DNA from: a virus
Virus genome (UHGV): UHGV-1550212
Reading direction: 5' to 3' (one strand)
Length of the DNA stretch: 64,000 nucleotides
Shown one piece after another: positions 1 through 36,623 of this stretch (position 1 is the first letter of the stretch; each line of letters begins with the position of its first letter). Under the pieces are notes generated by a model that was not told the DNA's origin, made no database searches, and saw nothing but the letters and a program-made list of their open reading frames with translations. A program made the translations under genes and the position numbers.

Positions 1-646
1 CAATTACATCGTGGCCAATACCTGACATGGGCTCTGGCTCAGGTTCCGGTTCAGGTTCCGGTTCAGGTTCCGGTTCAGGCTCCGGTTCAGGTTCCGGTTC
101 AGGTTCCGGTTCAGGTTCCGGTTCCGGTTCCGGTTCAGGTTCCGGTTCAGGTTCCGGCTTGGGCTTTGATGAATAGTTAAACATCTTGTGAATCCATTTG
201 CACCACCATTTGTGACATGCATGTGCGCCATCATGATAATACGCTTGCAGCTCCATTGGAATTGCATGATATGCTTTGTCATGTGACATACCTTTGAATA
301 TTCGCAAGTACACATAGCACAAGCAATATGCAATGTAGTACATAAGCGGTGATGCAAGCAGCCACCACCAGCTAAGCACATTGCATGCTGCAAGCACAAT
401 AAGTACAAGCAACGTCGCAAGTGTTACAAAGATGAATTGCTTTGCATGCACAGCTTCATGCTTCAAGGTCTCAGAGTATCTGCTAAGTGTGTCATCATAT
501 GACTTATCACTTCTTATGAAGCACATTGCACACAACGACATTGCATAATAATGTGAAAATGGAATGCATGGCTGGTCGATGACAAGCATTGGTCCAGCAA
601 ACCACAGTCGCCACTGAGATTTATTTGGCAGTGTTGCAGTTTTCAT
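1..646 (-). CDS. HExxH metallopeptidase-like membrane protein with C-terminal (Glu-Pro)n linker; partial, 3' end beyond window
   Basis: ATG at 646..644 (minus), frame open to position 1, so absent from ORF track. Translation [19 protein letters not shown]...[24 protein letters not shown] (HEAVH = HExxH, then hydrophobic segments), ending in ~20 EP dipeptides. Confidence 0.55.
31..158 (-). repeat. Tandem GGTTCC/GGTTCA hexamer array (~21 units) encoding alternating Glu-Pro
   Basis: Direct reading; period 6/12 nt. The track ORF 4..420 (NLNRNL...) is the wrong frame of this array. Confidence 0.9.
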
Positions 647-709: not shown

Positions 710-3547
710 CTACTCAGCAGATGCACCTTGCAGTGACAATGTTGTACGATGTACGCCAATTCGAATGCCTTGAGCATTGATGATTTCAGTGTCAAGTACA
801 ATGAATCCGCGAGCAATCGTTTCATCATCATTGTTGCTGCTATCGCAGACATTCGTGTACGAAACTGCGCCACCGGCTGCAACGATGCCATCCATGAAGT
901 TGTCTGCTTTTGTTTTGACCTGCAAACGAACATTTGCAGTGTTTCGTTTGTACTGAGCAGACTTCAGATATGGCTCAATGTTGTCAGCGACATAGATGAG
1001 CAACTCAAGATTTTCAATGTAGCTGAATGCGCTGGTGTAAGCTACTTGTGCAGAACGAGATGTCAGCATTGTGATGACGCCTTGGTCTGAACGAGCGAGC
1101 ATGTTCCAACCTGCAGGTTCAAGGTCATCCATATCAGACCCTTCACCTTGCGAGACAATCATGTCAATGTCGGTTACACCAACACCAGACAGTGGCCACT
1201 CATCACCAGCAACGACGTCAAAGACATGCTTGCCTGCTTCTGTATGCTTTCTCATGAAGACATTCGACAAGATACCTGTTGCAGGAATCGTCATATCATC
1301 AATGCCATCATTGTAGCGAACATTGGCTACATATGTGATGAACGGTGCGCCATCAGTTTGACCTGCGAAGCTGAACAACTTGCTGTATGGTTTATCGGTG
1401 TTACCACCTGCAGCACAGTACTTAGACTCAATTGGGTCACCTGCATTGTCCTTAAAGTACGGGTCAGTTGAGCGGAACAAGTCATACTTGGTTGGCAGAG
1501 CAGAGAATGCGATTGCACGTTTTGAATCATTGCAAATCTTTGCAAACTCGTACTTTTGATTTGCTGCAATGTATGTCTTGAATGGGTCAACTACATAACG
1601 CCATTGACATTGATTGTGGTCCATCAAGCTACGATAAACGCCGCCTGAAATGAGAGCTTGCAGTACTTCTGTCTGACGTGCAGATGTGCCATCAACAAAT
1701 TGAGTTGCACGAAGAGCTACACCATGTAGATATGCGCCCTTGAAGAACTTAACTTGGTCAACAAGCTTCGTCAATGACCAAACAGACGCCTGCGAGGCGT
1801 ACTTCATCATTGAGCCATCTGCAAGTTCAAATTCGCCTTCAGCACCTGCAGCTTTGTATGCCAATGCACCAGTGAATTGATATTCAATCAGCACTTTGTT
1901 TTCTGCAAATGCGTCGTAGACATTCTTCTTCTCAAGCGGCGACAAATCAGCTTCAGTGATTGTGATTGGCATACCGCCATACTTGAGTGGCTTGTCTAAT
2001 GGCAGGCCATTTGAATCATATTCAACAAGGTCACCGCCATATGAAATTGTCTCACCTGCAGCTCTTGCTTTACGAGCTTTCGTTGATGAAGTTTCTGCAT
2101 CTGCAGACTCTTCGCCGCCAATTATGACTGTTGAGCCTTGTGGATAGATGAAGTTGCCCTTTGCATCCTGAGGGAATGCTACCTTTGCACCTGATTCGTT
2201 AGTGTACATTGGAATGCCGCCTTCCTTGCCAATGACAGGAACTGCGCGATATTCAGCTACAACTGCGCGACTTGTACAACGTACTGGCGAGCCATCTGCA
2301 CCAATAAAGATGTCGCCAAGCGAAATTGGCAACACTGGTGCAACAAATGAAGTCTTTGAAGCTTCACCTGGCTGCACAAATGGAACCATCACATTAACAA
2401 ACTCAGATGACACGAAGTCCTTGAGCTGTTCTTTTGTGATTGCGACATCTGTTGCTGTTGGCGTGCAGTCAATCTTTTCAGGATTGATGTCAGTTGACGG
2501 ACGAGCCATGCCAAGATATTGATGCGTAGCATCATCAGCAAACAGTGGACCTGCAGCGTCATCTACAGAAATGTAGTTCGAACCAAAGATGTCCACTGCA
2601 CGTTGGAAACGAGCATCTTCGATATCATTCGAATTGTAGAACTCGTCAACCTTGTCAGGGTCAATCTTACACATGATACCCGTCGTGTCTGACACTGCAT
2701 TCACAGCAGTTTCCAATGACAACTTGTTACCATTGATATCAAGCAAGTCAGGAATCAATGAGCCAGATACACGACCCATGTAGCCAGATGCAGCAAGCTT
2801 TGACAATGCCTCAGGACCATACATGCCATCAACTTGTGCACGGATACCATCCTTTGTGAAGTACTTGCCATATACAGTCGAACCTGCAAGTGACTCATAG
2901 TTCGTCAGCTTTTCAGAGAAGAACCAAACGTCAACCATATAGTCTGACACAAGGTCATTGCAATTCACGCCAGGCACATACATTGATGGGAAGCGGTCTT
3001 GAACTGACTTGATATCATAATCATAGCCAGTCAATGTCGTCGGCGTAATGAAGATTGTTGCAGACTTGTTTGTAAGTGTTGAGAAGTTGAGCAGTTGTAC
3101 AGGGTCAGTGCCAACTGCATTGAGCAGATTCAATGGCTCAGCTTTCCAGAAGTTTGATGTATCATAGACATCCTTAAATGGAACGTCTACAGGCGAGCCA
3201 TCTTCTCCTGAGCTGTTTGCAGCAAAAGTCACTCGTGACAACACATCGCTATCATTGAATGAGCGCAAGTTCAACACAAGAATTGGGCTTGTTGCAAGCA
3301 TTTGCTCTGCAATGAGACCAGCGAAACAGCCGGCACGCTCCAAACGCTTGTCACGTTGACCGAAAATTTCATGCAGCTGGTCTGCATCTTCAACAAGCGC
3401 GGCGCGATTGACCGGACCGTTCTTCCACTGGCCAGGCAGCAATCGAAGTGTTTGAGCGGGCAGTGAGTCAAGGCGACTTGCGTCAATGAACAGACGATAT
3501 GTCCCGACTGACTTGAACCGTTCAAATAAAGAAGTGTTATTTGCCAT
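710..3547 (-). CDS. Tail sheath-like structural protein (T4 gp18-like), 945 aa
   Basis: ORF 710..3631 trimmed to ATG at 3547 (MANNTSLFERF; ATG at 3628 also possible). C-terminus ...YTNVCDSSNNDDETIARGFIVLDTEI resembles the conserved sheath C-terminus as recalled; large size, structural neighbourhood. Confidence 0.5.
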   Translation of the reverse strand: MANNTSLFERFKSVGTYRLFIDASRLDSLPAQTLRLLPGQWKNGPVNRAALVEDADQLHEIFGQRDKRLERAGCFAGLIAEQMLATSPILVLNLRSFNDSDVLSRVTFAANSSGEDGSPVDVPFKDVYDTSNFWKAEPLNLLNAVGTDPVQLLNFSTLTNKSATIFITPTTLTGYDYDIKSVQDRFPSMYVPGVNCNDLVSDYMVDVWFFSEKLTNYESLAGSTVYGKYFTKDGIRAQVDGMYGPEALSKLAASGYMGRVSGSLIPDLLDINGNKLSLETAVNAVSDTTGIMCKIDPDKVDEFYNSNDIEDARFQRAVDIFGSNYISVDDAAGPLFADDATHQYLGMARPSTDINPEKIDCTPTATDVAITKEQLKDFVSSEFVNVMVPFVQPGEASKTSFVAPVLPISLGDIFIGADGSPVRCTSRAVVAEYRAVPVIGKEGGIPMYTNESGAKVAFPQDAKGNFIYPQGSTVIIGGEESADAETSSTKARKARAAGETISYGGDLVEYDSNGLPLDKPLKYGGMPITITEADLSPLEKKNVYDAFAENKVLIEYQFTGALAYKAAGAEGEFELADGSMMKYASQASVWSLTKLVDQVKFFKGAYLHGVALRATQFVDGTSARQTEVLQALISGGVYRSLMDHNQCQWRYVVDPFKTYIAANQKYEFAKICNDSKRAIAFSALPTKYDLFRSTDPYFKDNAGDPIESKYCAAGGNTDKPYSKLFSFAGQTDGAPFITYVANVRYNDGIDDMTIPATGILSNVFMRKHTEAGKHVFDVVAGDEWPLSGVGVTDIDMIVSQGEGSDMDDLEPAGWNMLARSDQGVITMLTSRSAQVAYTSAFSYIENLELLIYVADNIEPYLKSAQYKRNTANVRLQVKTKADNFMDGIVAAGGAVSYTNVCDSSNNDDETIARGFIVLDTEIINAQGIRIGVHRTTLSLQGASAE

Positions 3548-7953: not shown

Positions 7954-8622
7954 ATGTCAACAAACAATCATGGCAAGCTCAGATTGCTTGAGCTCAAAGA
8001 AGCACAGCCATATGACACGCTCAAAATTGGCATTGACGTATCAGTAGATGCTACTGGCATGTGCATGATATTTGGCAAAACTGTTGCGCTGTTCAAATTT
8101 ACGCCGCACTTGCCACCAGAAGATGACAGTTCAGATGATGTGAATTTTGTGCAGTTCAACAAAATCTATCTGCAAACATCATCTTCTGCAAGAGAACGCT
8201 CAAAAATGCATACTCGACACACACTTGCAAACAAGATTGTTGACGCGATTGATATGTTCATGCAGGAAATTTGGCCGAATAGCCCAGCAAACATTCAAAT
8301 TGTTACAGAAGGGTCTGCATATGGCTATGCCGCACACAACTCTAACAGCTTGGTAGAACTTGCTGAATTTAGAAGCGTGATTTTAGAAAGAGTCTATCAT
8401 CGTTGGCCACTCGGCACGCATCTAAGTCTTGACGTTATTGCGCCAAAATCATTGAAGAAACATGCAACCGGTGACGGCAAAGCAGACAAACTAAAGATGA
8501 TTGAAGCTGCAATTGCTAAGTTGACACACATTCATTGGGCAGGCAAAATTGACGATGAATGCGATGCATTGCATCTTTGTCTGTATGAGCCATTAAGCAA
8601 TCCTGAACCACGACTTTGGTGA
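7954..8622 (+). CDS. RuvC-like Holliday junction resolvase
   Basis: LKIGIDVSVDATG (Asp motif I), IVTEGSAYGYA (catalytic Glu), DDECDALHLCLY (C-terminal Asp/His motif); 222 aa. Confidence 0.65.
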   Translation: MSTNNHGKLRLLELKEAQPYDTLKIGIDVSVDATGMCMIFGKTVALFKFTPHLPPEDDSSDDVNFVQFNKIYLQTSSSARERSKMHTRHTLANKIVDAIDMFMQEIWPNSPANIQIVTEGSAYGYAAHNSNSLVELAEFRSVILERVYHRWPLGTHLSLDVIAPKSLKKHATGDGKADKLKMIEAAIAKLTHIHWAGKIDDECDALHLCLYEPLSNPEPRLW

Positions 8623-8788
8623 CATTACATCGTACAACATAAGTTTCATTTCAAAAACTCAATTCATATGCAAATCCCTCGTAACTGGGGGTGGGGCACA
8701 ACAAGCCCTCCAAGTCAAAGACGGCGCATTTGACATCACTGTGCGCTTTACATGTGAAAGCTCTACAGCTGCACAATATAAGTACATC

Positions 8789-9049
8789 ATGGTGCACATT
8801 GATGGCTTACATGCAGCAGGTCAATATGCATATCTTGGCGTATCATTGTCACAGACAGGCGTCATATACCATGCAAAGTGGACATCTGGTTCTGGTACAG
8901 GACCTCAAGGCCCATTTAAGCCAGGCACAATTATCAGATTTGGCTTGCACAATTCAGTGTCATCAACTACAACGCCTCGTGCAATGCAAGCAATAGAAGT
9001 TGACGCAAAGCAATTTGGGCAAAATTATGCTATATTGTTTCAGCTGTAG
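8789..9049 (+). CDS. Hypothetical protein (86 aa)
   Basis: First in-frame ATG of track ORF 8741..9049 (GTG start); downstream of RuvC-like gene on same strand, followed by hairpin at 9094. Confidence 0.3.
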   Translation: MVHIDGLHAAGQYAYLGVSLSQTGVIYHAKWTSGSGTGPQGPFKPGTIIRFGLHNSVSSTTTPRAMQAIEVDAKQFGQNYAILFQL

Positions 9050-9093
9050 TATTGATTGCAATGGTATGCACTCGTTAACATAAGCATCAAAAA

Positions 9094-9120
9094 ACTCCGA
9101 CAGAATTGTTCTGTCGGAGT
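9094..9120. terminator. Bidirectional intrinsic terminator between convergent genes
   Basis: ACTCCGACAGAA-TTG-TTCTGTCGGAGT, 12-bp perfect stem, A-run upstream and T-rich downstream. Confidence 0.65.
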
Positions 9121-9167
9121 TTGCTGTTGTAAACAGCTGTCTTAATGTTTTGCAATCTATAGCAAAT

Positions 9168-10961
9168 TCAATTTTGTGTTGCAACGTCATCAGTCTTGTT
9201 ATCAACTGGCTCATCGTCGACATGTGTATCAACATCAATGCCAGAAGCTGCAGCAAGTGAAACATCATTAGCGACGCCTTGTTGTTCAAGTTGTTGTTGA
9301 GCTTGCTTTGTTTGAATTGCGACAAGTCTTGCAGCTTCCATTGCAAGCTTAAGATTCTCTTGAAGTTCGATATCAAGCTGTTCAGCATTAGCTTGCATGT
9401 CTTCTTTGCTTAAGCCAAGATACTTGTTGATAAGCCAATTGCTTGAGAAGAATGGGCGTTCAGTATCAGACATGTTAAGTGAACGAACAAGTGAACTGCG
9501 AATGTCTTCGATTGTATGAATACGCTTCTGAAGCAATGTGAGCTCCATTTGCGTCTGGAAATGATTGTATCTATTGAATTTGAGTTTTAGCGCATTCAAA
9601 ACTTCATTGTCGCCAATGTAGTTATTGTTTTTGATGCACATCAAAACATACACAGGCTTCAATATGATTGCAATGCCAAATCTACGCATCAAAGCTGAAA
9701 TAAAGATTGCAAAACGACGCTCATCACGCTGAATTGACTCTTCAGAAACATTCCACATGCCACCGCCATCATCGAATCTGCTTAGAGGCAGCTTTGACAG
9801 ACGTTGTAAGTTATTGCGGAAATATGTGACTGCTGAAGTATCAGATAAGTCAGGCATGCCTGTGCCAATTGTTTGAATGTTGGGTTTGCCTGCATTAGTG
9901 TCAGCCATCCAAAATTCGCTATTGAAAGGCACAGATGCTTCGCCATTAACTTGGAGTTCGCCGGTTTGATTGTCGAATTCAATTTTTTCGTGGTACTTAT
10001 TCATTGCTTTACGCAATGTTTCCTGTGCAGCAGCTTTCAGTTTACCGCCAGTAGGAATTGTGATAAGTGAACGAAAACGAGAAGCTGTCGTAGCATATGC
10101 AATGCGACTTCGCTCCAAAATCCTGAGCAAGTTGAATGCACGAACAAGACGCTCAAAATATGACATAGACCCAACCATGTCATCGTTCCACTGCAAATAT
10201 GCTACTTGCGAATCAAGCAAGTTGATTTTTTCTGAGTTGTTAGACACAAATGCTGGTGCTTTGACATCAAACATTGTATGTGTCTTGAACATATCTTGTT
10301 GAGACTTATCATACTGCCAGAAGAACATTTCACCCTTCTTCATAGGCGTCAATGCAAATGCATTCAACTTTTTGATGCCAACAATATCAGTCGGCTCATC
10401 TGCATTATCAAACACAATCTCATAGCCAAGTCTGCCTCGTACAAGATATTCACGCAACAATGCTCTAACATCTTGTTTGCGAGGTTCAGAGTTCAACCCA
10501 TTGAATGCATACATCAAATAGACTTGCTTGAATGCATCCATAAAGTCATCTTTGATTGTCTGCTTTGCTGTGTCGTCTATCTCAAGTTTATCGATGTCAC
10601 AAAAATCAGGCTCGCAAAAGAAATTACTATCGGAATTGAACACGATGCACTCATCAATCATGCGGTCAAGAATGTCGTCGAGTTCCGGTTCTGCACTTAA
10701 GATGTCATATTTTTTGGCTCGAAGATAACTTGTCAATCCAAAAAGATTCTTTTTAGGTGACTCTTTCTGATTGAACACGTCATCAGTAGACAACACAACA
10801 ACTTCTTGGTCATTGATGTTATGCTCACCTGTATATGCTGCTTTCTCCAAATCTGCATCAGACCCAGACTTGTGCACATTCAATTGCTGCAATGGACTGT
10901 CTTTCGGAATTGAGCGTAATGCATCAGTTCCCAGATATGTTCGTTTGGTCTTTTTAGCCAT
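9168..10961 (-). CDS. Portal-like protein (T4 gp20-like), 597 aa
   Basis: ATG at 10961; ...SEFWMADTNAGKP...YFRNNLQRLSKLPLSRFDD resembles portal core motif (VPLSRI region) as recalled. Confidence 0.55.
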   Translation of the reverse strand: MAKKTKRTYLGTDALRSIPKDSPLQQLNVHKSGSDADLEKAAYTGEHNINDQEVVVLSTDDVFNQKESPKKNLFGLTSYLRAKKYDILSAEPELDDILDRMIDECIVFNSDSNFFCEPDFCDIDKLEIDDTAKQTIKDDFMDAFKQVYLMYAFNGLNSEPRKQDVRALLREYLVRGRLGYEIVFDNADEPTDIVGIKKLNAFALTPMKKGEMFFWQYDKSQQDMFKTHTMFDVKAPAFVSNNSEKINLLDSQVAYLQWNDDMVGSMSYFERLVRAFNLLRILERSRIAYATTASRFRSLITIPTGGKLKAAAQETLRKAMNKYHEKIEFDNQTGELQVNGEASVPFNSEFWMADTNAGKPNIQTIGTGMPDLSDTSAVTYFRNNLQRLSKLPLSRFDDGGGMWNVSEESIQRDERRFAIFISALMRRFGIAIILKPVYVLMCIKNNNYIGDNEVLNALKLKFNRYNHFQTQMELTLLQKRIHTIEDIRSSLVRSLNMSDTERPFFSSNWLINKYLGLSKEDMQANAEQLDIELQENLKLAMEAARLVAIQTKQAQQQLEQQGVANDVSLAAASGIDVDTHVDDEPVDNKTDDVATQN

Positions 10962-21137: not shown

Positions 21138-22430
21138 CTACAACAATGACGGCACTCGTTGAGTTTCAAGTGGGTCGCTGACATTGATGCCTGTGTATGC
21201 AACAAGTCGTTGTATTGGGCCAAGTACGAGTTTTTCGAACATGAGTCGTTTGTTCATTGGCGGCACATCTGGCATATACTTCGGTGTCGGCATTTCGCCT
21301 GGTGCAAAGCCAAATGCATCGCAATATTGACGAGAGCCAATTGGTATATTTGACAAATCTGACTTTGCTCTGTCAACAAAGTAGTAGAACACTCGACCGC
21401 CTTCAATCAATGGGTATCGTGTTTCCAATCCATGTGCTTTGACAAGACAGTTATGCCAACAACATGCTCTATATTGAGGCAGTACACCTTTTGCTAACTG
21501 CCATTCACCATCATAGCTTAGCACATAGTCATGATACTTGTTTGCATTGACATATGCACAAAGTTTCTCCAAGTCTTGCTCGGCTTCAAAGCGTTTCCAT
21601 AATTTCTGTATGAGCTTTGGATATGTCGCAGAAGTTAATTCGCCTCTGAACATTTTCTTGAATGCATAATCAAGCATTTGTCTAACAAGCATTGACGAGC
21701 CTGTTTGAATAAGTTCGATGCCTTTGCCTTGAATGTGCTCAGTAGGGTCTTCGAATACTCGACCATCTACATATATTTGAGCCTTTAAGTACTTTTTCTT
21801 TTGGGCAAATAATGCAGTGTCAGAAATCGTTTCGAGGTCAAATAGCAAAATTGAATTGCCGTGGCGTTTTGCGAGGTCTGCTGCATATGCACCATTGAAT
21901 AACTCTTCCATACGATATTTGAATATCGCAAGAATCAAGTCATACCAATTTTTGCCTATGTAGCCAATTGATTTGACAGTTGGCTCAAAGTGAATGTACA
22001 AAGAGTCTGTATCAATGTACAACACTTTGTCTTCATAAGGCTCTTGCTTTGGCGACACAGACAAATCAAAATTGCCCTTCAATTGTGGGTCATTACGCAG
22101 CTTTTCATGCAATTCATAATCACACCACCACTTATTGTTGAGATAGTCATTTGCTACTCGTTCACCAAAGTGAATGAAGTTGCGGCCTTCAGCAGTAATT
22201 GATTCTGCAACTGCCATATTAAAGAAGTGATAGAAACGATTGCTTGTAGCGCCATATATTGAGTTTCGACAACATTTTGCTGAGACTTGCAGTCCTGCAT
22301 GCTTTAGTGATTCTTGCATTGCAAAATCTCTCAATTCAAATAGACGTTCAGTAGACAACTGGCTTAAATCACCAGTCAAATCTACTCCATCTATTTCAAT
22401 TTTTGACATATCTATCTGAGCTTCTGCCAT
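21138..22430 (-). CDS. DNA polymerase family B, C-terminal fragment (motifs B and C)
   Basis: ...CCRNSIYGATS (KxxxNSxYG) and ...VLYIDTDSLYIHF (YxDTDS); 430 aa; own promoter upstream. Confidence 0.85.
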   Translation of the reverse strand: MAEAQIDMSKIEIDGVDLTGDLSQLSTERLFELRDFAMQESLKHAGLQVSAKCCRNSIYGATSNRFYHFFNMAVAESITAEGRNFIHFGERVANDYLNNKWWCDYELHEKLRNDPQLKGNFDLSVSPKQEPYEDKVLYIDTDSLYIHFEPTVKSIGYIGKNWYDLILAIFKYRMEELFNGAYAADLAKRHGNSILLFDLETISDTALFAQKKKYLKAQIYVDGRVFEDPTEHIQGKGIELIQTGSSMLVRQMLDYAFKKMFRGELTSATYPKLIQKLWKRFEAEQDLEKLCAYVNANKYHDYVLSYDGEWQLAKGVLPQYRACCWHNCLVKAHGLETRYPLIEGGRVFYYFVDRAKSDLSNIPIGSRQYCDAFGFAPGEMPTPKYMPDVPPMNKRLMFEKLVLGPIQRLVAYTGINVSDPLETQRVPSLL

Positions 22431-23399: not shown

Positions 23400-23433
23400 C
23401 TTGTATCTATGTTGTTGATTTTCAATTTAATAT

Positions 23434-24723: not shown

Positions 24724-26229
24724 TTACAATTTGATTGCGCCTCTACGAGCAAGCTCTTCTTCAATCAATCGAACATGATTGTTAGCATACCAAAATTGCA
24801 ATTTTTTGTGATAATTGCGAACGTTGCCAAGCTGTTCTTGAGTTTCTTTATACATTGAAGGCTCTCTGTTGTCATACAGACAATTGTTGACTGACACAAA
24901 GTAATTTGGGTCTGCTTTGTAATGCTCAATTTCATCAGGATTTGTTAAACGTCTAATAAAGTTGTCTGGTGAAATATTCGCCGAGCGCATACTTGACGGA
25001 TACAATGAGTTTGCGTCAACACAGACAACCATACGAGCCCAATGGTTAAATGGTTGCTTAACAAAGCCGCCCTCAAATGAATGTACTACATTCTCTGGGC
25101 CACCTTGAGCACATACAACTTTGCCGCCATATTTGTTGTATAAGTATGTCATCATGACGCCCTCAGATTGCTTAACTGGTCCTTGGCAGTGATTCATGTC
25201 AATATTTGTCATATTTGACAATGACATCACATTTGATATCAAGTCAGTTTTTGCAGCAATCATTGCATTGACCATAGTATCGACAGCATTGTATGCAATG
25301 AATGTGCATGGATGATACAAATACAGCTCTTTAAGTGTGCAATCATAGGGCAACTTACCTACGCCGAACATACGATGTGCAATGTAGTCAAGTCGCAATG
25401 ATTCCTTTTGCCACACTGAATAGTCGTATGTGTCCATGAGCTGCATGTAGTCATCAATGTACTTGTGATATGGCATACCATTGCCCCAGACAGTTCTGCC
25501 AACTGGAGATGCCAATGCTAAATCAATATTGTGCATTGCGCATCGATTTTTGACATAGATGTTATCGAAGTCATTGATGTTCCAGCCTGTCAATGCAGGA
25601 ATGTTTTTGAAGAGCTTAGTCACCCAAAAATGCAACAATTCATGCTCATTTGCATGTTGAAAAATTTTGACAGTTGGATGTTCTTTCAAATACGCAGCAA
25701 AGCAATGTTGACCCATATACTCTTGAATGATGCCATTGACAAACTCAAATGCATCATCCAATGTTGGGTTTTGTTTGCCGCAGCTTTTGCGCAAATCATC
25801 ATCATTCAACAAGTCAACAGTAGTCTGAATGACACAATTGCATTGTTCATCGCATGTACTTATTGCATTAATGGGCATTTCAGCTTTGTCAGGCTTTGGA
25901 AAGCCATTGCCAATTTCAGTCTCAATATCGTAAAAGTACAACTTTGGTCTACGATAAGCAAACAATTCAGCTTTGTCAGCTTCAGGCAATTCAAATAAGA
26001 ATTGCAGCAAGTCAAATTGATTGAATCGTTTTGCTGTGACTCGAGTCACTGGCAATTTACGCCAATCTTGAATATCTGCATATTGAGGCTCTACGTGGTC
26101 TGATATTTGCCACACTGGAAATTGATATGGCTGTTCACAGACTGGGTATGTTTTGATGTCAATGCCACCTTGCTCATTAACATATGAGACTTCAATGCCA
26201 TGTGACAAATATGCTACGTCAACAATCAT
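24724..26229 (-). CDS. DNA polymerase family B, N-terminal fragment (3'-5' exonuclease + motif A)
   Basis: FYDIETE (Exo I), NINDFD (Exo II), YNAVD (Exo III), VDANSLYPS (motif A); 501 aa. Confidence 0.85.
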   Translation of the reverse strand: MIVDVAYLSHGIEVSYVNEQGGIDIKTYPVCEQPYQFPVWQISDHVEPQYADIQDWRKLPVTRVTAKRFNQFDLLQFLFELPEADKAELFAYRRPKLYFYDIETEIGNGFPKPDKAEMPINAISTCDEQCNCVIQTTVDLLNDDDLRKSCGKQNPTLDDAFEFVNGIIQEYMGQHCFAAYLKEHPTVKIFQHANEHELLHFWVTKLFKNIPALTGWNINDFDNIYVKNRCAMHNIDLALASPVGRTVWGNGMPYHKYIDDYMQLMDTYDYSVWQKESLRLDYIAHRMFGVGKLPYDCTLKELYLYHPCTFIAYNAVDTMVNAMIAAKTDLISNVMSLSNMTNIDMNHCQGPVKQSEGVMMTYLYNKYGGKVVCAQGGPENVVHSFEGGFVKQPFNHWARMVVCVDANSLYPSSMRSANISPDNFIRRLTNPDEIEHYKADPNYFVSVNNCLYDNREPSMYKETQEQLGNVRNYHKKLQFWYANNHVRLIEEELARRGAIKL

Positions 26230-34001: not shown

Positions 34002-34033
34002 AAAGACTGCTGCAAATTATTGCAGCAGTCTTT
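34002..34033 (-). terminator. Intrinsic terminator, 14-bp perfect stem
   Basis: AAAGACTGCTGCAA-ATTA-TTGCAGCAGTCTTT. Confidence 0.65.
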
Positions 34034-34051: not shown

Positions 34052-34945
34052 CTATGTCAATGCAATAAAGACATCACCAGATTGCTCAGCCTCAAGCTCT
34101 TTTTCAACTGTCTGTTGCATTGTTTGACCTTTTGACGCAAGTCTATCAAAGTTAATGCGAACATTGCCGGGCAACTTGAAGTCATATGTGCCAATGATAT
34201 CTGCAAGTTCTTGCATGCATTGACCAGTGCAGTATCTCAAGAAACGTCTGTCTTCATACAATGACTGCAGTGGCACTCTTACCCAACACATCAACACCAA
34301 ATCAGACCCTTCATTGTCACCAAGAATGTTCAGCTTATGACTAAATCTGTTGAAGTTATACGTGATTGTTCGTTGCAAAATGCTTTCATACGTGCCAATT
34401 TCATACATTGTCACCCACAAGTCATCTGCAATTGATGCATTTTGAGAACCTGCAGGCCCAGCGTAGTTAAATGACACACCGTTTGCTTCACTGTAAAAGT
34501 TAATTGAGTTGCTAAGCAGTCGTTCAAGATAAAAGTTTGCACGACGCATTGACAGCTTATGCTGTGATTCAAGCAACTGCACATCTGATACAGCCCAGAT
34601 TTGTGGCGGCAATTTGACAATTTTGTTTGCACCATCAGTCATGTCAATATCGCGAACAACAAACCAGCGCTCTTCAAGAGCAGACTCAGAATGTTCAAAA
34701 AACCATTCTGCGCATGTTTCAATGATTTGCGGCATACGAGTCTTCGGAATTGCAAAGGGCAATGCACAGCCTCGTGTGACTTCTTGAACAAGTCGCTCAA
34801 TGAATCGCAAGTCTACACTGTAGTCGTATTTAGAATTGATATTTTCGACTTCAGGCTTATTGCACTCATTTGTTGTTGCGCCTTCGACTTTCCAAGAAGT
34901 TGCGCCGTCATTGATTGGTGGCGCTGGTTTACGTTGAACTTTCAT
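34052..34945 (-). CDS. Hypothetical protein (297 aa)
   Basis: ATG start. Confidence 0.6.
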   Translation of the reverse strand: MKVQRKPAPPINDGATSWKVEGATTNECNKPEVENINSKYDYSVDLRFIERLVQEVTRGCALPFAIPKTRMPQIIETCAEWFFEHSESALEERWFVVRDIDMTDGANKIVKLPPQIWAVSDVQLLESQHKLSMRRANFYLERLLSNSINFYSEANGVSFNYAGPAGSQNASIADDLWVTMYEIGTYESILQRTITYNFNRFSHKLNILGDNEGSDLVLMCWVRVPLQSLYEDRRFLRYCTGQCMQELADIIGTYDFKLPGNVRINFDRLASKGQTMQQTVEKELEAEQSGDVFIALT

Positions 34946-35003: not shown

Positions 35004-35561
35004 CTACGGTATGATGTTGAAATTGACTGCAAGCAACAATGATGTGACATCTTCGCCCAATGGAAATGAACCTGTAGTAAAACCAACTGTTTTTGTTTGT
35101 GTATATTGGCTGCTCAAATCGAAGTAGTATTGTGATGGCGACAATTCTGGTGTAGCATGCGGCTCAGTTTGACCATTTCGAACAACCATCAATCGTACTG
35201 GACCATTGAATGTTGCTTTATGATTCGGCAATGCAGAACCGTTGTAGTTAAGCGACATGTATTGCATCGTAATTCGAATCTGCTCAGCATATGATTTGCT
35301 AAGGTCAAGTTGCTGAGTGCCTTGAACACGTAGAATACTTGATTGTCCAGATGACTGCCAATTTGCATACACAGATTGCTCGTTGGTCGTTATGATGGCA
35401 TTGCCATCAATATCGAGTAGTTCAACAGTCATCTGACCTGTCAAGCTGATTCGATTGCCAAGATTGTTGCCTACTACTGCAATGCTAACTGAAACGGGCT
35501 TCAAAGACCCCCCCTGCGCCACATTTTGTGAACGATAGTGGTCTTGTGTAACTGTTGACAT
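35004..35561 (-). CDS. Hypothetical protein, tandem paralog A (185 aa)
   Basis: Trimmed to ATG 35561; MSTVTQDHYRSQNVAQGGSLKP; G7 tract at 35508-35514. Confidence 0.5.
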   Translation of the reverse strand: MSTVTQDHYRSQNVAQGGSLKPVSVSIAVVGNNLGNRISLTGQMTVELLDIDGNAIITTNEQSVYANWQSSGQSSILRVQGTQQLDLSKSYAEQIRITMQYMSLNYNGSALPNHKATFNGPVRLMVVRNGQTEPHATPELSPSQYYFDLSSQYTQTKTVGFTTGSFPLGEDVTSLLLAVNFNIIP

Positions 35562-35608
35562 ATCATAAAGTGTTTTGCGATGATGCAATCCACTTTATGA
35601 ATGCATCA

Positions 35609-35980
35609 TCAGTTAAATAATGTTTGAATTTTTATTGTAACGTCATTGCAGCCTTTTAGCAAGTCGACTTGAATCATATCGACAAATGCTGAACGATAAC
35701 TTAAACCATTGCTGTACTGAACGTAAAAGTACTTGATATGCTCCCAATCATTTACGCAAGCTTTCGTAAAGTTATCTGACAACTGAATGCTTGTTGCTGA
35801 TAGAGTCGTACATGCAACGTACGAATCAACAAATATATGCAAGTCATTTACATTGATGTAACCAACGACATCAAGTTGATTTGTAAACGTGCTCAGCGGC
35901 AATGTCAGTATGATGTGGCCTAACTTAACAGAGCCCCCCGCGTTTTGTGAACGATAGTGGTCTTGAGTAACGTGTGACAT
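35609..35980 (-). CDS. Hypothetical protein, tandem paralog B (123 aa)
   Basis: Trimmed to ATG 35980; MSHVTQDHYRSQNAGGSVKL; G6 tract at 35934-35939. Confidence 0.5.
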   Translation of the reverse strand: MSHVTQDHYRSQNAGGSVKLGHIILTLPLSTFTNQLDVVGYINVNDLHIFVDSYVACTTLSATSIQLSDNFTKACVNDWEHIKYFYVQYSNGLSYRSAFVDMIQVDLLKGCNDVTIKIQTLFN

Positions 35981-36011: not shown

Positions 36012-36623
36012 TTATGGTGTAATAATCGGTCCACCGCCAGGCAAACTTGAACATGTTTGCATATATGTGTACAACAAGTTACCTGCATTTTGCATAATGT
36101 TTGCAAACATCAATGTGATGCCTCGCAAATCTGCTTCGCCTTCAAATGTGTTGATGAACGCTTGCTGTGCACATGCAAACATTACTGGCACAGTCGATGC
36201 ACTTGTCATTGCAATCACAGGACCGCCAGGCGACAAGGGCAACACTGGTGGCGATGCAGGCACAGTTAAGTTTGTTGGAATCCATGCTGCAACTGCTGCA
36301 GCATAAGGCTTAAAGCCATTGCCAAACTTTATTGCAATGTTCTTTGGGTCTGCTTCACCTTGAAACGTTTCTATAAGTGCTTGTCTGCCTGCTTCAAATA
36401 AAGATTGCTCAAGTGCAGCAGTTGGACCTGCAGTTATTGGACCGCCAACAGGCAATCCTGTGCAAGTTGCAATGTAGCTTGCTACGCCTGTTGCAAACAA
36501 TTGACTGAACTTGTTGGCAAACTTTGTCGCAATTTGTGGTCTATCATGCTCACCTTGAAAAGTTGCAGTATATGCTTGATATGCAATAGGCTGCACAGCA
36601 GCTTGCAATGTGGCACCTGGCAT
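36012..36623 (-). CDS. Protein with three ~65-aa tandem repeats
   Basis: Trimmed to ATG 36623; each repeat has F(Q/E)GE(H/A)D...KF(A/G)N.F...GGP. Confidence 0.5.
   Translation of the reverse strand: MPGATLQAAVQPIAYQAYTATFQGEHDRPQIATKFANKFSQLFATGVASYIATCTGLPVGGPITAGPTAALEQSLFEAGRQALIETFQGEADPKNIAIKFGNGFKPYAAAVAAWIPTNLTVPASPPVLPLSPGGPVIAMTSASTVPVMFACAQQAFINTFEGEADLRGITLMFANIMQNAGNLLYTYMQTCSSLPGGGPIITP

Follow-up and report, generated by a model that had tools for sequence, protein, structure and literature searches.

Why should two small neighboring genes of a phage each carry an uninterrupted run of G just behind the start codon, in a genome that otherwise avoids such runs? The question concerns the open reading frames (ORFs) A and B (Table 1), which lie in a 64,000-nucleotide (nt) stretch of the virus genome UHGV-1550212, referred to here as the window. 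The window is part of an uncultured phage of about 175 kb with a GC content of about 41%. Our analysis suggests that the two runs are, on balance probably, poly-G contingency loci at the joint between leader and body of exchangeable, diversifying accessory cassettes. This reading builds on what is observed at the locus, namely the anatomy of the cassettes, the rarity and codon bias of the tracts, differences in run length, truncations, and the ratio of nonsynonymous to synonymous substitution rates (dN/dS) in the cassettes.

A shared leader and two rare G runs

Both ORFs lie on the minus strand and open with MS(T/H)VTQDHYRSQN, as an earlier sequence-only reading of this stretch had described. 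The DNA block that they were said to share is also present, as an exact match of 23 nt (CAAGACCACTATCGTTCACAAAA; none expected from 100 shuffles) nested in a 44-nt repeat of 86% identity (repeat scan, D14); beyond this 5' block, positions 35004-35980 have no repeat partner within the window. The description of A and B as tandem paralogs holds for the first 44 or so residues, and not for the rest: residues 1-44 can be aligned (hhalign probability 93.5%; BLASTP identity 41% over 51 amino acids (aa)), and the bodies past about residue 44 show no homology detectable by hhalign or BLASTP. AlphaFold models of the two proteins are all-beta or Ig-like, with a predicted local distance difference test score (pLDDT) of about 70 and the first 16-19 residues disordered; the AlphaFold2 model of A has a pLDDT of 70, a predicted template modelling (TM) score of 0.64 and disorder over residues 1-19. 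Neither protein matches a Pfam or PHROG family, a Foldseek search of BFVD gave only TM scores below 0.35, so that fold and family searches assign nothing to either, and tblastn with A as the query had no match among 50,697 phage records. An exhaustive HMMER search with A recovered one true distant homologue (P0008, the A2 cassette of contig L011); another match, P0009, was discarded as a low-complexity repeat artefact.

The runs are on the coding strand of their genes, as had been stated. Their rarity proves to be stronger than the sequence-only reading had it: the window contains 27 homopolymers of at least 6 nt, 25 of them A or T, and the A and B tracts are the only two made of G or C. The next longest G/C runs are one G5 and ten C4. 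Markov models of order 1-3 predict 0.17-0.41 G/C runs of at least 6 nt per 64-kb window, and 1-9% of the simulations give two or more. The genome had been called AT-rich, which is true only to a moderate degree (GC 0.38-0.45). Codon usage points the same way as run counts: GGG accounts for 4.8% of the 805 Gly codons in 41 long ORFs, and none of the 34 other Gly-Gly pairs of the window is spelled GGGGGG, while the joints of A, B and four related cassettes introduced below (B', A2, C2 and F) are mostly written with GGG. Both tracts derive from one ancestral 5' module, a single origin retained twice; since tract and module share this ancestry, the runs of A and B do not count as independent of each other. 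The sole other G/C run of at least 5 nt in the window is a GGGGG at 8687-8691, between ORFs 7954..8622(+) and 8963..9388(-).

Run length among relatives and its effect on frame

All alleles of the window tracts that differ by ±1 or ±2 truncate the product, to 19-25 aa in A (19 aa with G6, 25 aa with G8) and to 17-20 aa in B (19 aa with G5, 18 aa with G7). The shifted frames end after 2-8 codons, and changes of ±3 keep the frame. With a G8 tract, translation from the candidate start upstream of A (Table 1) would enter the A body as MICQQLHKTTIVHKMWRRGGSLKP, and this is the reading that the gene caller chose for a frameshifted A allele in contig L006 (P0016, 187 aa).

The runs were compared across related contigs, whose flanking proteins are 94-100% identical to those of the window except in L004 and L016. 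Tract length is not invariant: at least five states occur in A-type cassettes and at least four in B-type ones. In A, the tract reads G7 in the window, AG6C in L002/L003, and G4AG2 (Gly to Arg) in L004, L005 and, at protein level, P0003 and P0015, all of which are in frame; in L006 it reads G5AG2, which is +1 and out of frame. The A2 cassette of L011, 33% identical to A, has G7 and is out of frame, so that the leader ends as MSRVTQDHYRSQNAVGGS followed by a stop, with the body in the +1 frame. In B, the tract is G6 in the window and L007, G3TG5 in L005 (in frame, with one extra Gly) and G5 in L006 (out of frame); the tract of the B-like cassette F of L002 is G8, again out of frame. Further in-frame variants with one added Gly are P0005/P0018 (GGGS; P0018 is B, seen at protein level) and P0019 (GGGA; B', known at protein level only).

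Four of the ten cassettes that have a G run of at least 5 nt are thus out of frame, each exactly at the run (L006-B, L006-A, L011-A2 and L002-F). In three of these four the body is still open downstream (166, about 105 and 168 codons), and the body of L002 has a second frameshift; bodies that stay open past a frameshift suggest recent or reversible events. Between L005 and L006, which share 93.8% nucleotide identity over 3.15 kb, the only coding indels that are not a multiple of three are those in the two tracts. Three A variants known at protein level (P0013, P0014 and P0017, 166 aa) are called from a TTG at codon 20 and probably have a disrupted leader or joint. The suggestion that length changes could switch A and B on or off therefore gains partial support, from the run lengths of relatives, the out-of-frame alleles and the truncation caused by ±1 and ±2 changes.

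A hypervariable slot of exchangeable cassettes

At least five cassette types, A and B among them, are interchangeable in a hypervariable slot and have a translated leader in common. The slot spans from the gene of a 203-aa protein to that of a T4 gp13-like neck protein, and its content differs among relatives. It holds B and A in the window, L001, L005 and L006; a degraded B-like F and A in L002; A alone in L004; B' and C in L007; C in L008; E and C in L015 (L009 shows the end of E only, then C); A2 and C2 in L011; and D in L014. The leader therefore precedes no fewer than five types of body (A/A2, B/B', C/C2, D and E), and also the degraded F. Across all cassettes its consensus is MS-[HRTN]-VT-[QRKL]-[DE]-[HQ]-[YF]-R-[SA]-Q-N, and its codons differ by synonymous and two-base changes (CGT/CGC/AGA, CAC/CAT, TAT/TAC/TTT/TTC), among them CGT to AGA and TCA to GCA in C, C2 and the A of L004. 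That the leader is kept despite such codon changes indicates selection on the translated peptide, and not on a DNA motif alone. Behind it follow a short joint, often G-G-[SA]-[VL]-K-P and G-rich in most cassettes, and then an unrelated body. Cassettes C, C2, D, E, A2 and B' gave only sub-threshold noise in Pfam and PHROG searches.

Searches for the leader elsewhere were largely negative. The exact 23-mer has no match in IMG/VR, a degenerate 20-mer has two chance matches there, and back-translated leader patterns run against IMG/VR and GTDB genomes yielded no confirmed relative; searches with the flanking genes added L008-L010 only. The distant cultured phages PAU, pT24 and MA9V-1 have no such leader or cassette slot beside their neck genes.

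Exchange of this kind invites another explanation of the repeated 5' end, which we regard as possible rather than probable: the block, made up of the leader-coding DNA and the joint next to it, and the conserved flanks would chiefly supply homology for cassette swaps during co-infection, much as in the shuffling of T4-type internal-protein loci, and the G run would be a passenger. It is compatible with the contingency reading. Phages with 94-99% identical flanks do hold differing cassette sets, and the 23-nt identity of A and B contrasts with bodies that cannot be aligned. At two synonymous sites of the leader, B of the window matches A of the window (CGT TCA) and not B of L005/L006 (CGC TCG), a pattern that suggests gene conversion between the 5' modules of A and B. 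The synonymous divergence (dS) of the cassettes (0.015-0.045) is about ten times below that of the flanks (0.17-0.41), which implies recent horizontal spread of cassettes across backgrounds. In addition, the start of L002 falls within the block, perhaps because the assembly broke at the repeat. What homology does not account for is the conservation of the leader as a peptide in C, C2 and L004-A, and it leaves the confinement of ±1 changes to the runs unexplained; moreover, cassette C has the block without a G run, and the run is thus not an obligatory part of it.

Selection and lesions in the slot

The flanking genes have dN/dS values of 0.01-0.15 at the dS given above. In close comparisons, dN/dS is 0.75-2.6 for the A body (dS 0.017-0.018) and 1.9-9.4 for the B body (dS 0.015-0.045), and it exceeds 1 in five of six such comparisons; between A and the more distant L002 allele it is 0.25-0.35 (dS 0.26-0.30). 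Cassettes thus gain amino acid changes fast, and their dN/dS is the signature of arms-race genes.

Cassettes in the slot are also frequently broken. About ten lesions are found in about 19 cassette copies: four at G runs, one in an A5 (L014), one in an A7 (L016), three nonsense changes (Table 1) and the extra frameshift in F of L002. Six of the roughly ten lie within the first 20 or so codons, including the leader nonsense change of L008. Several of the off alleles retain an intact body with another start in front of it, a role that falls to ATGATATG in A, to a TTG codon in L011 and to Met15 in L008. The flanking genes are all intact in the contigs with nonsense cassettes (L008, L005 and L015), and the flanking genes of the same contigs are free of stops and frameshifts over 14,663 aligned codons (about 44 kb), in which A/T runs are abundant. 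Lesions are therefore concentrated in the slot (p ~1e-8, a simple binomial on lesion counts). L014-L016 came from a leader-profile search that returned truncated products only and is biased to disrupted alleles; without these three contigs, six of 16 cassettes are disrupted.

Several observations weigh against the contingency reading. The window strain is in frame for both genes in an independent assembly as well (L001, 100% identity over 6558 nt), and a protein identical to A (P0001) is called on five contigs. Coverage is only 2-4x in L004, L009, L015 and L016, and some lesions could be assembly errors. The slot also holds the three nonsense changes (L005-A, L008-C and L015-E) and the two A-tract frameshifts (L014-D and L016-C); loss of function is tolerated or favored whatever the state of the G tracts, and frameshifts may just be the commonest route of decay. 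Such lesions outside the G tracts speak against a need for the tracts in inactivation, and in favor of the view that the on/off state is important at this locus. The tract is interrupted in L004, L005, P0003 and P0015 and absent from C, and is thus not indispensable. Finally, a Gly-Gly pair may be wanted at protein level, as G-G-S-[VL]-K-P recurs.

The same observations can be turned into an explanation of their own, in which the G runs merely encode an inherited flexible Gly-Gly joint, A and B are dispensable and on the way to becoming pseudogenes, and differences in run length are ordinary mutations or homopolymer and assembly errors with no role in switching. We consider this doubtful. Lesions of other kinds are equally common in the slot, low coverage, interrupted tracts and the tract-free C fit it, and two close comparisons of A have dN/dS near 1-2, which is also possible under relaxed constraint. 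Decay does not, however, sit well with the retention of a codon as rare as GGG in the joints of cassettes that have diverged to 33% identity, with dN/dS in B above the neutral value of 1, with purifying selection on A at longer distance, or with the fully open bodies past three of four frameshifts. The lesion-free flanking codons, with their many A/T runs, argue against generic homopolymer error.

A proposed mechanism

A cassette consists of the 13-residue translated leader, MS-x-VT-Q-[DE]-H-[YF]-R-[SA]-Q-N, the Gly-rich joint and an unrelated small beta-rich body, and the joint, written mostly in the rare codon GGG, forms a run of G5-G8. In the mechanism that we propose for the contingency reading, this run would be a hotspot for slipped-strand mispairing. 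Loss or gain of one G at replication would cut the leader off from the body, with a stop within 2-8 codons (OFF), and a second slip or a 3-nt change would restore the frame (ON), such that a phage population would carry a mixture of ON and OFF genotypes of A and B. Switching would have to be frequent and reversible within a population, and selected for, as we infer from the differences between strains. The proteins themselves may be virion-associated host-interaction factors, and the leader a common docking or targeting peptide; here we draw on the position beside neck and baseplate genes, the predicted Ig-like folds and the arms-race signature.

A more specific version, which seems unlikely to us, is that the tract toggles the coupling of body to leader rather than acting as a plain off switch, giving phase-variable cargo loading from exchangeable cassettes. 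If the leader docks or targets to the neck and baseplate or to the capsid, each phage would stochastically choose which accessory domains are mounted or packaged, and the other bodies would be made free or not at all.

If the tracts do switch, an uncultured phage of about 175 kb would have a poly-G contingency locus, and the reach of the mechanism would be extended. To our knowledge, experimental proof of it has so far come from Campylobacter phages alone and, for A runs, from T-even phages and a few others. Within about 1 kb the locus joins three modes of change, namely cassette exchange behind a common leader, dN/dS mostly above 1, and on/off alleles that are probably driven by slippage. A, B and the other cassettes are therefore prime candidates for host-range or anti-defense factors in a phage group without functional annotation, and the locus offers a concrete place for a reads-based search for phage bet-hedging in natural communities.

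RNA structure and recoding

The RNA of 35480-35625(-) is predicted to fold at -41.1 kcal/mol (z = -3.35), and none of 200 shuffles is as stable. The predicted fold pairs the start-codon region of A (CACUUUAUGAUAUG) with sequence just past the stop codon of B, and the inverted repeat that begins at this stop codon (Table 1) is part of it. One may speculate from this model that translation of B to its natural stop might open the start of A, in which case the phase of B could affect A. Other hairpins precede cassette C in L007, L009, L011 and L015. In the fold of A the tract and the conserved block pair (AAGACC/GGUCUU), but a role for this pairing was dropped, as B has no complement.

It is highly improbable that the G run is instead a programmed slippery site for ribosomal frameshifting or transcriptional slippage, by which one allele would yield the full protein as well as a peptide of the leader alone, or out-of-frame alleles would be rescued. 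In favor of such a site, the zero-frame G GGG GGG of L011 fits the heptamer pattern X XXY YYZ formally, bodies stay intact in out-of-frame alleles and the surrounding RNA is predicted to be structured. Against it, A and B of the window are already in frame, and their other frames close too soon for any extended trans-frame product. Relative to the leader, the body of L011 lies in the +1 and not the -1 frame; run length varies, where a recoding signal should be conserved; and bacterial transcriptional slippage is documented mainly on long A/T runs. A programmed -1 frameshift of the tail-chaperone G/GT type was likewise rejected, as the frames do not fit.

The phage and the gene neighborhood

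Contigs of 174-176 kb that are identical or near-identical to the phage of the window are present in public assemblies. Judged from its proteins, the phage is distantly related to the Chryseobacterium, Tenacibaculum and Sphingomonas PAU jumbo phages. The 1101-aa protein encoded near the slot matches phrog_29329 and is 23-31% identical to proteins of the phages MA9V-1/2 (Chryseobacterium), PAU (Sphingomonas) and PTm1/PTm5/pT24 (Tenacibaculum), and, in the same range, to proteins of uncultured megaphages and of a phage of Flavobacterium. These relatives point to a host among the Bacteroidota. At the nucleotide level, megablast searches with 3 kb and with 24 kb around the locus had no match in the 50,697 phage records.

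All genes around A and B are on the minus strand. Read downstream on this strand, the order is an exonuclease, proteins of 553 aa and 476 aa, a 292-aa baseplate protein (phrog_37871), a 94-aa protein, the 203-aa protein with three repeats, B, A, the gp13-like neck protein, a terminator-like hairpin and the 1101-aa protein. The assignment of the neck protein is backed by a precomputed match to PF26809 (Phage_T4_gp13) and by homologues in MA9V-2 and PTm1 that are annotated as 'neck protein'. The 203-aa protein is intact in most related loci at 94-100% amino acid identity (68-71% in L004 and L016, which are more distant), with dN/dS of 0.04-0.15, and is a candidate pseudo-threefold partner of the cassette leader. 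Each of its three internal repeats ends in a motif like P-G-G-P-I.

The hairpin directly behind the neck gene is likely to be a transcription terminator that closes the unit containing the cassettes, judged from its stem and T-rich tail. A conserved intergenic motif family (D2-D4) has copies of about 44 nt each at 23418, 28335, 30221, 43653, 54402, 58149 and 63877; its minus-strand sequence, TGCAAA(T/A)TGACA...ATATAATATA, is similar to a phage promoter of the TTGACA/TATAAT form. As this promoter-like motif has no copy between 30264 and 43653, A and B appear to lie inside one long transcription unit.

Two further features of the window were recorded. A tandem repeat of 6/12 nt (GGTTCC/GGTTCA; D1) at 6-173, with about 14 units of 12 nt, reads on the minus strand as a (Glu-Pro)n-type linker in ORF 4..420. 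The DNA polymerase is apparently split into a C-terminal part at 21138-22430 (phrog_1918/262) and an N-terminal part at 24724-26229 (phrog_2062/262), both on the minus strand and about 2.3 kb apart, with other ORFs between them.

Table 1. Positions of the cassette genes, their elements and boundaries in the window, and of cassette lesions outside the G runs in related contigs
Feature	Sequence	Position	Strand	Description
Cassette A ORF	Window	35004..35561	-	185 aa; starts MSTVTQDHYRSQNVAQGGSLKP; 13-aa leader, V-A-Q-G-G-S joint, all-beta body
Cassette B ORF	Window	35609..35980	-	123 aa; starts MSHVTQDHYRSQNAGGSVKL; same leader, A-G-G-S joint, Ig-like beta-sandwich body
A leader-coding module	Window	35523..35561	-	Codons 1-13, MSTVTQDHYRSQN; holds the exact 23-nt block at 35524-35546
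B leader-coding module	Window	35942..35980	-	Codons 1-13, MSHVTQDHYRSQN; holds the exact 23-nt block at 35943-35965
A tract, G7	Window	35508-35514	-	C7 on the plus strand; ORF nt 48-54, codons 16-18, CAG GGG GGG
B tract, G6	Window	35934-35939	-	C6 on the plus strand; ORF nt 42-47, codons 14-16, GCG GGG GGC
Out-of-frame ATG, candidate start	Window	35564..35566	-	5 nt upstream of the A start; ATGATATG
Inverted repeat GATGATGCA...TGCATCATC	Window	35579..35610	-	Begins at the B stop codon; part of a larger predicted RNA structure
203-aa three-repeat protein	Window	36012..36623	-	Upstream boundary of the cassette slot; no family match
T4 gp13-like neck protein	Window	34052..34945	-	Downstream boundary of the slot; phrog_211 head-tail adaptor, E = 4e-9
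Hairpin	Window	34002-34033	-	14-bp stem (6 GC) with T-rich tail, directly after the neck gene
Nonsense change in C	L008 (175.5-kb IMG/VR genome)	3510-3530		GAA to TAA, leader codon 7
Nonsense change in A	L005	~2760		CAA to TAA, codon 62
Nonsense change in E	L015	~524		TAA, codon 51
Frameshift in D	L014	2470-2485		A5 in the leader-body joint
Frameshift in C-like body	L016	~355-365		A7 inside the body

Comparison with known systems

Frameshifting by slipped-strand mispairing at homopolymers is established, and bacterial contingency genes with polyG or polyC tracts near the 5' end occur among the surface genes of Neisseria, Haemophilus and Campylobacter jejuni. A and B resemble these genes in that the tract follows soon after the start and the off-frames end at once. 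They also resemble them in that paralogs share a conserved 5' end, and alternative starts in another frame are found in lic1-type genes as well. They differ in belonging to a phage, with far fewer tracts per genome, and in that switching is read here from sequence.

Among phages, lytic Campylobacter phages reportedly carry hypermutable polyG tracts in ORFs, where length changes are said to shift the frame and to give phenotypically mixed progeny, including in genes for host recognition. The present locus is like them in mechanism only, with G homopolymers inside phage ORFs: tblastn of A against the phage records revealed no sequence relationship, the phage is jumbo-like with about 41% GC and only two such tracts in the 64 kb of the window, these tracts stand at the joint of a shared leader and a swappable body, and switching is deduced from differences between strains.

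Hypermutable homopolymers have also been described as contingency loci in T2 agt, T4 rIIA and other phages (Gomez, Barrick and Waters 2025, bioRxiv 10.1101/2025.10.21.683753). There, homopolymers of at least 6 nt in non-essential genes give ±1 frameshifts whose reversion is about 10^3 to 10^4 times as frequent as that of point mutations, and these frameshifts act as bet-hedging against host defenses (10.1101/2025.10.21.683753). In T2 and T4 the tracts consist of A, and about 170-190 runs of this kind are present in an AT-rich genome, whereas the G runs described here are outliers in a genome that avoids them. Unlike the T2 and T4 runs, they are found again in several cassettes at the homologous position, together with cassette exchange and dN/dS above 1.

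The internal proteins of T4 are diverse small proteins that share a short N-terminal capsid targeting sequence, and the set differs between close phages (PMC3012670). The cassettes are similar in having a short conserved N-terminal peptide on otherwise unrelated small proteins; in contrast to the T4 internal-protein locus, they adjoin neck and baseplate genes, and the sequence of the leader shows no L/I-x-E cleavage motif of the T4 type. PolyG joints are not known from the T4 internal-protein genes.

Diversity-generating retroelements (DGRs) and the invertible tail-fiber segments of Mu Gin and P1 Cin are other phage diversification devices (cited in PMC12823448). They generate heterogeneity of a population in accessory or host-range proteins, as the slot would. 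No inverted repeats flank the slot in the repeat scan of the window, unlike in Gin and Cin, and the idea that A and B are DGR targets was rejected, as the window contains no template/variable repeat pair for them and the substitutions are mixed and not adenine-specific.

The class of mechanism proposed here is therefore a known one. What sets the locus apart is the hinge position of the tract behind a universal leader, its recurrence across unrelated bodies and the natural OFF alleles, and also the way in which these go together with cassette swapping and a dN/dS that mostly exceeds 1.

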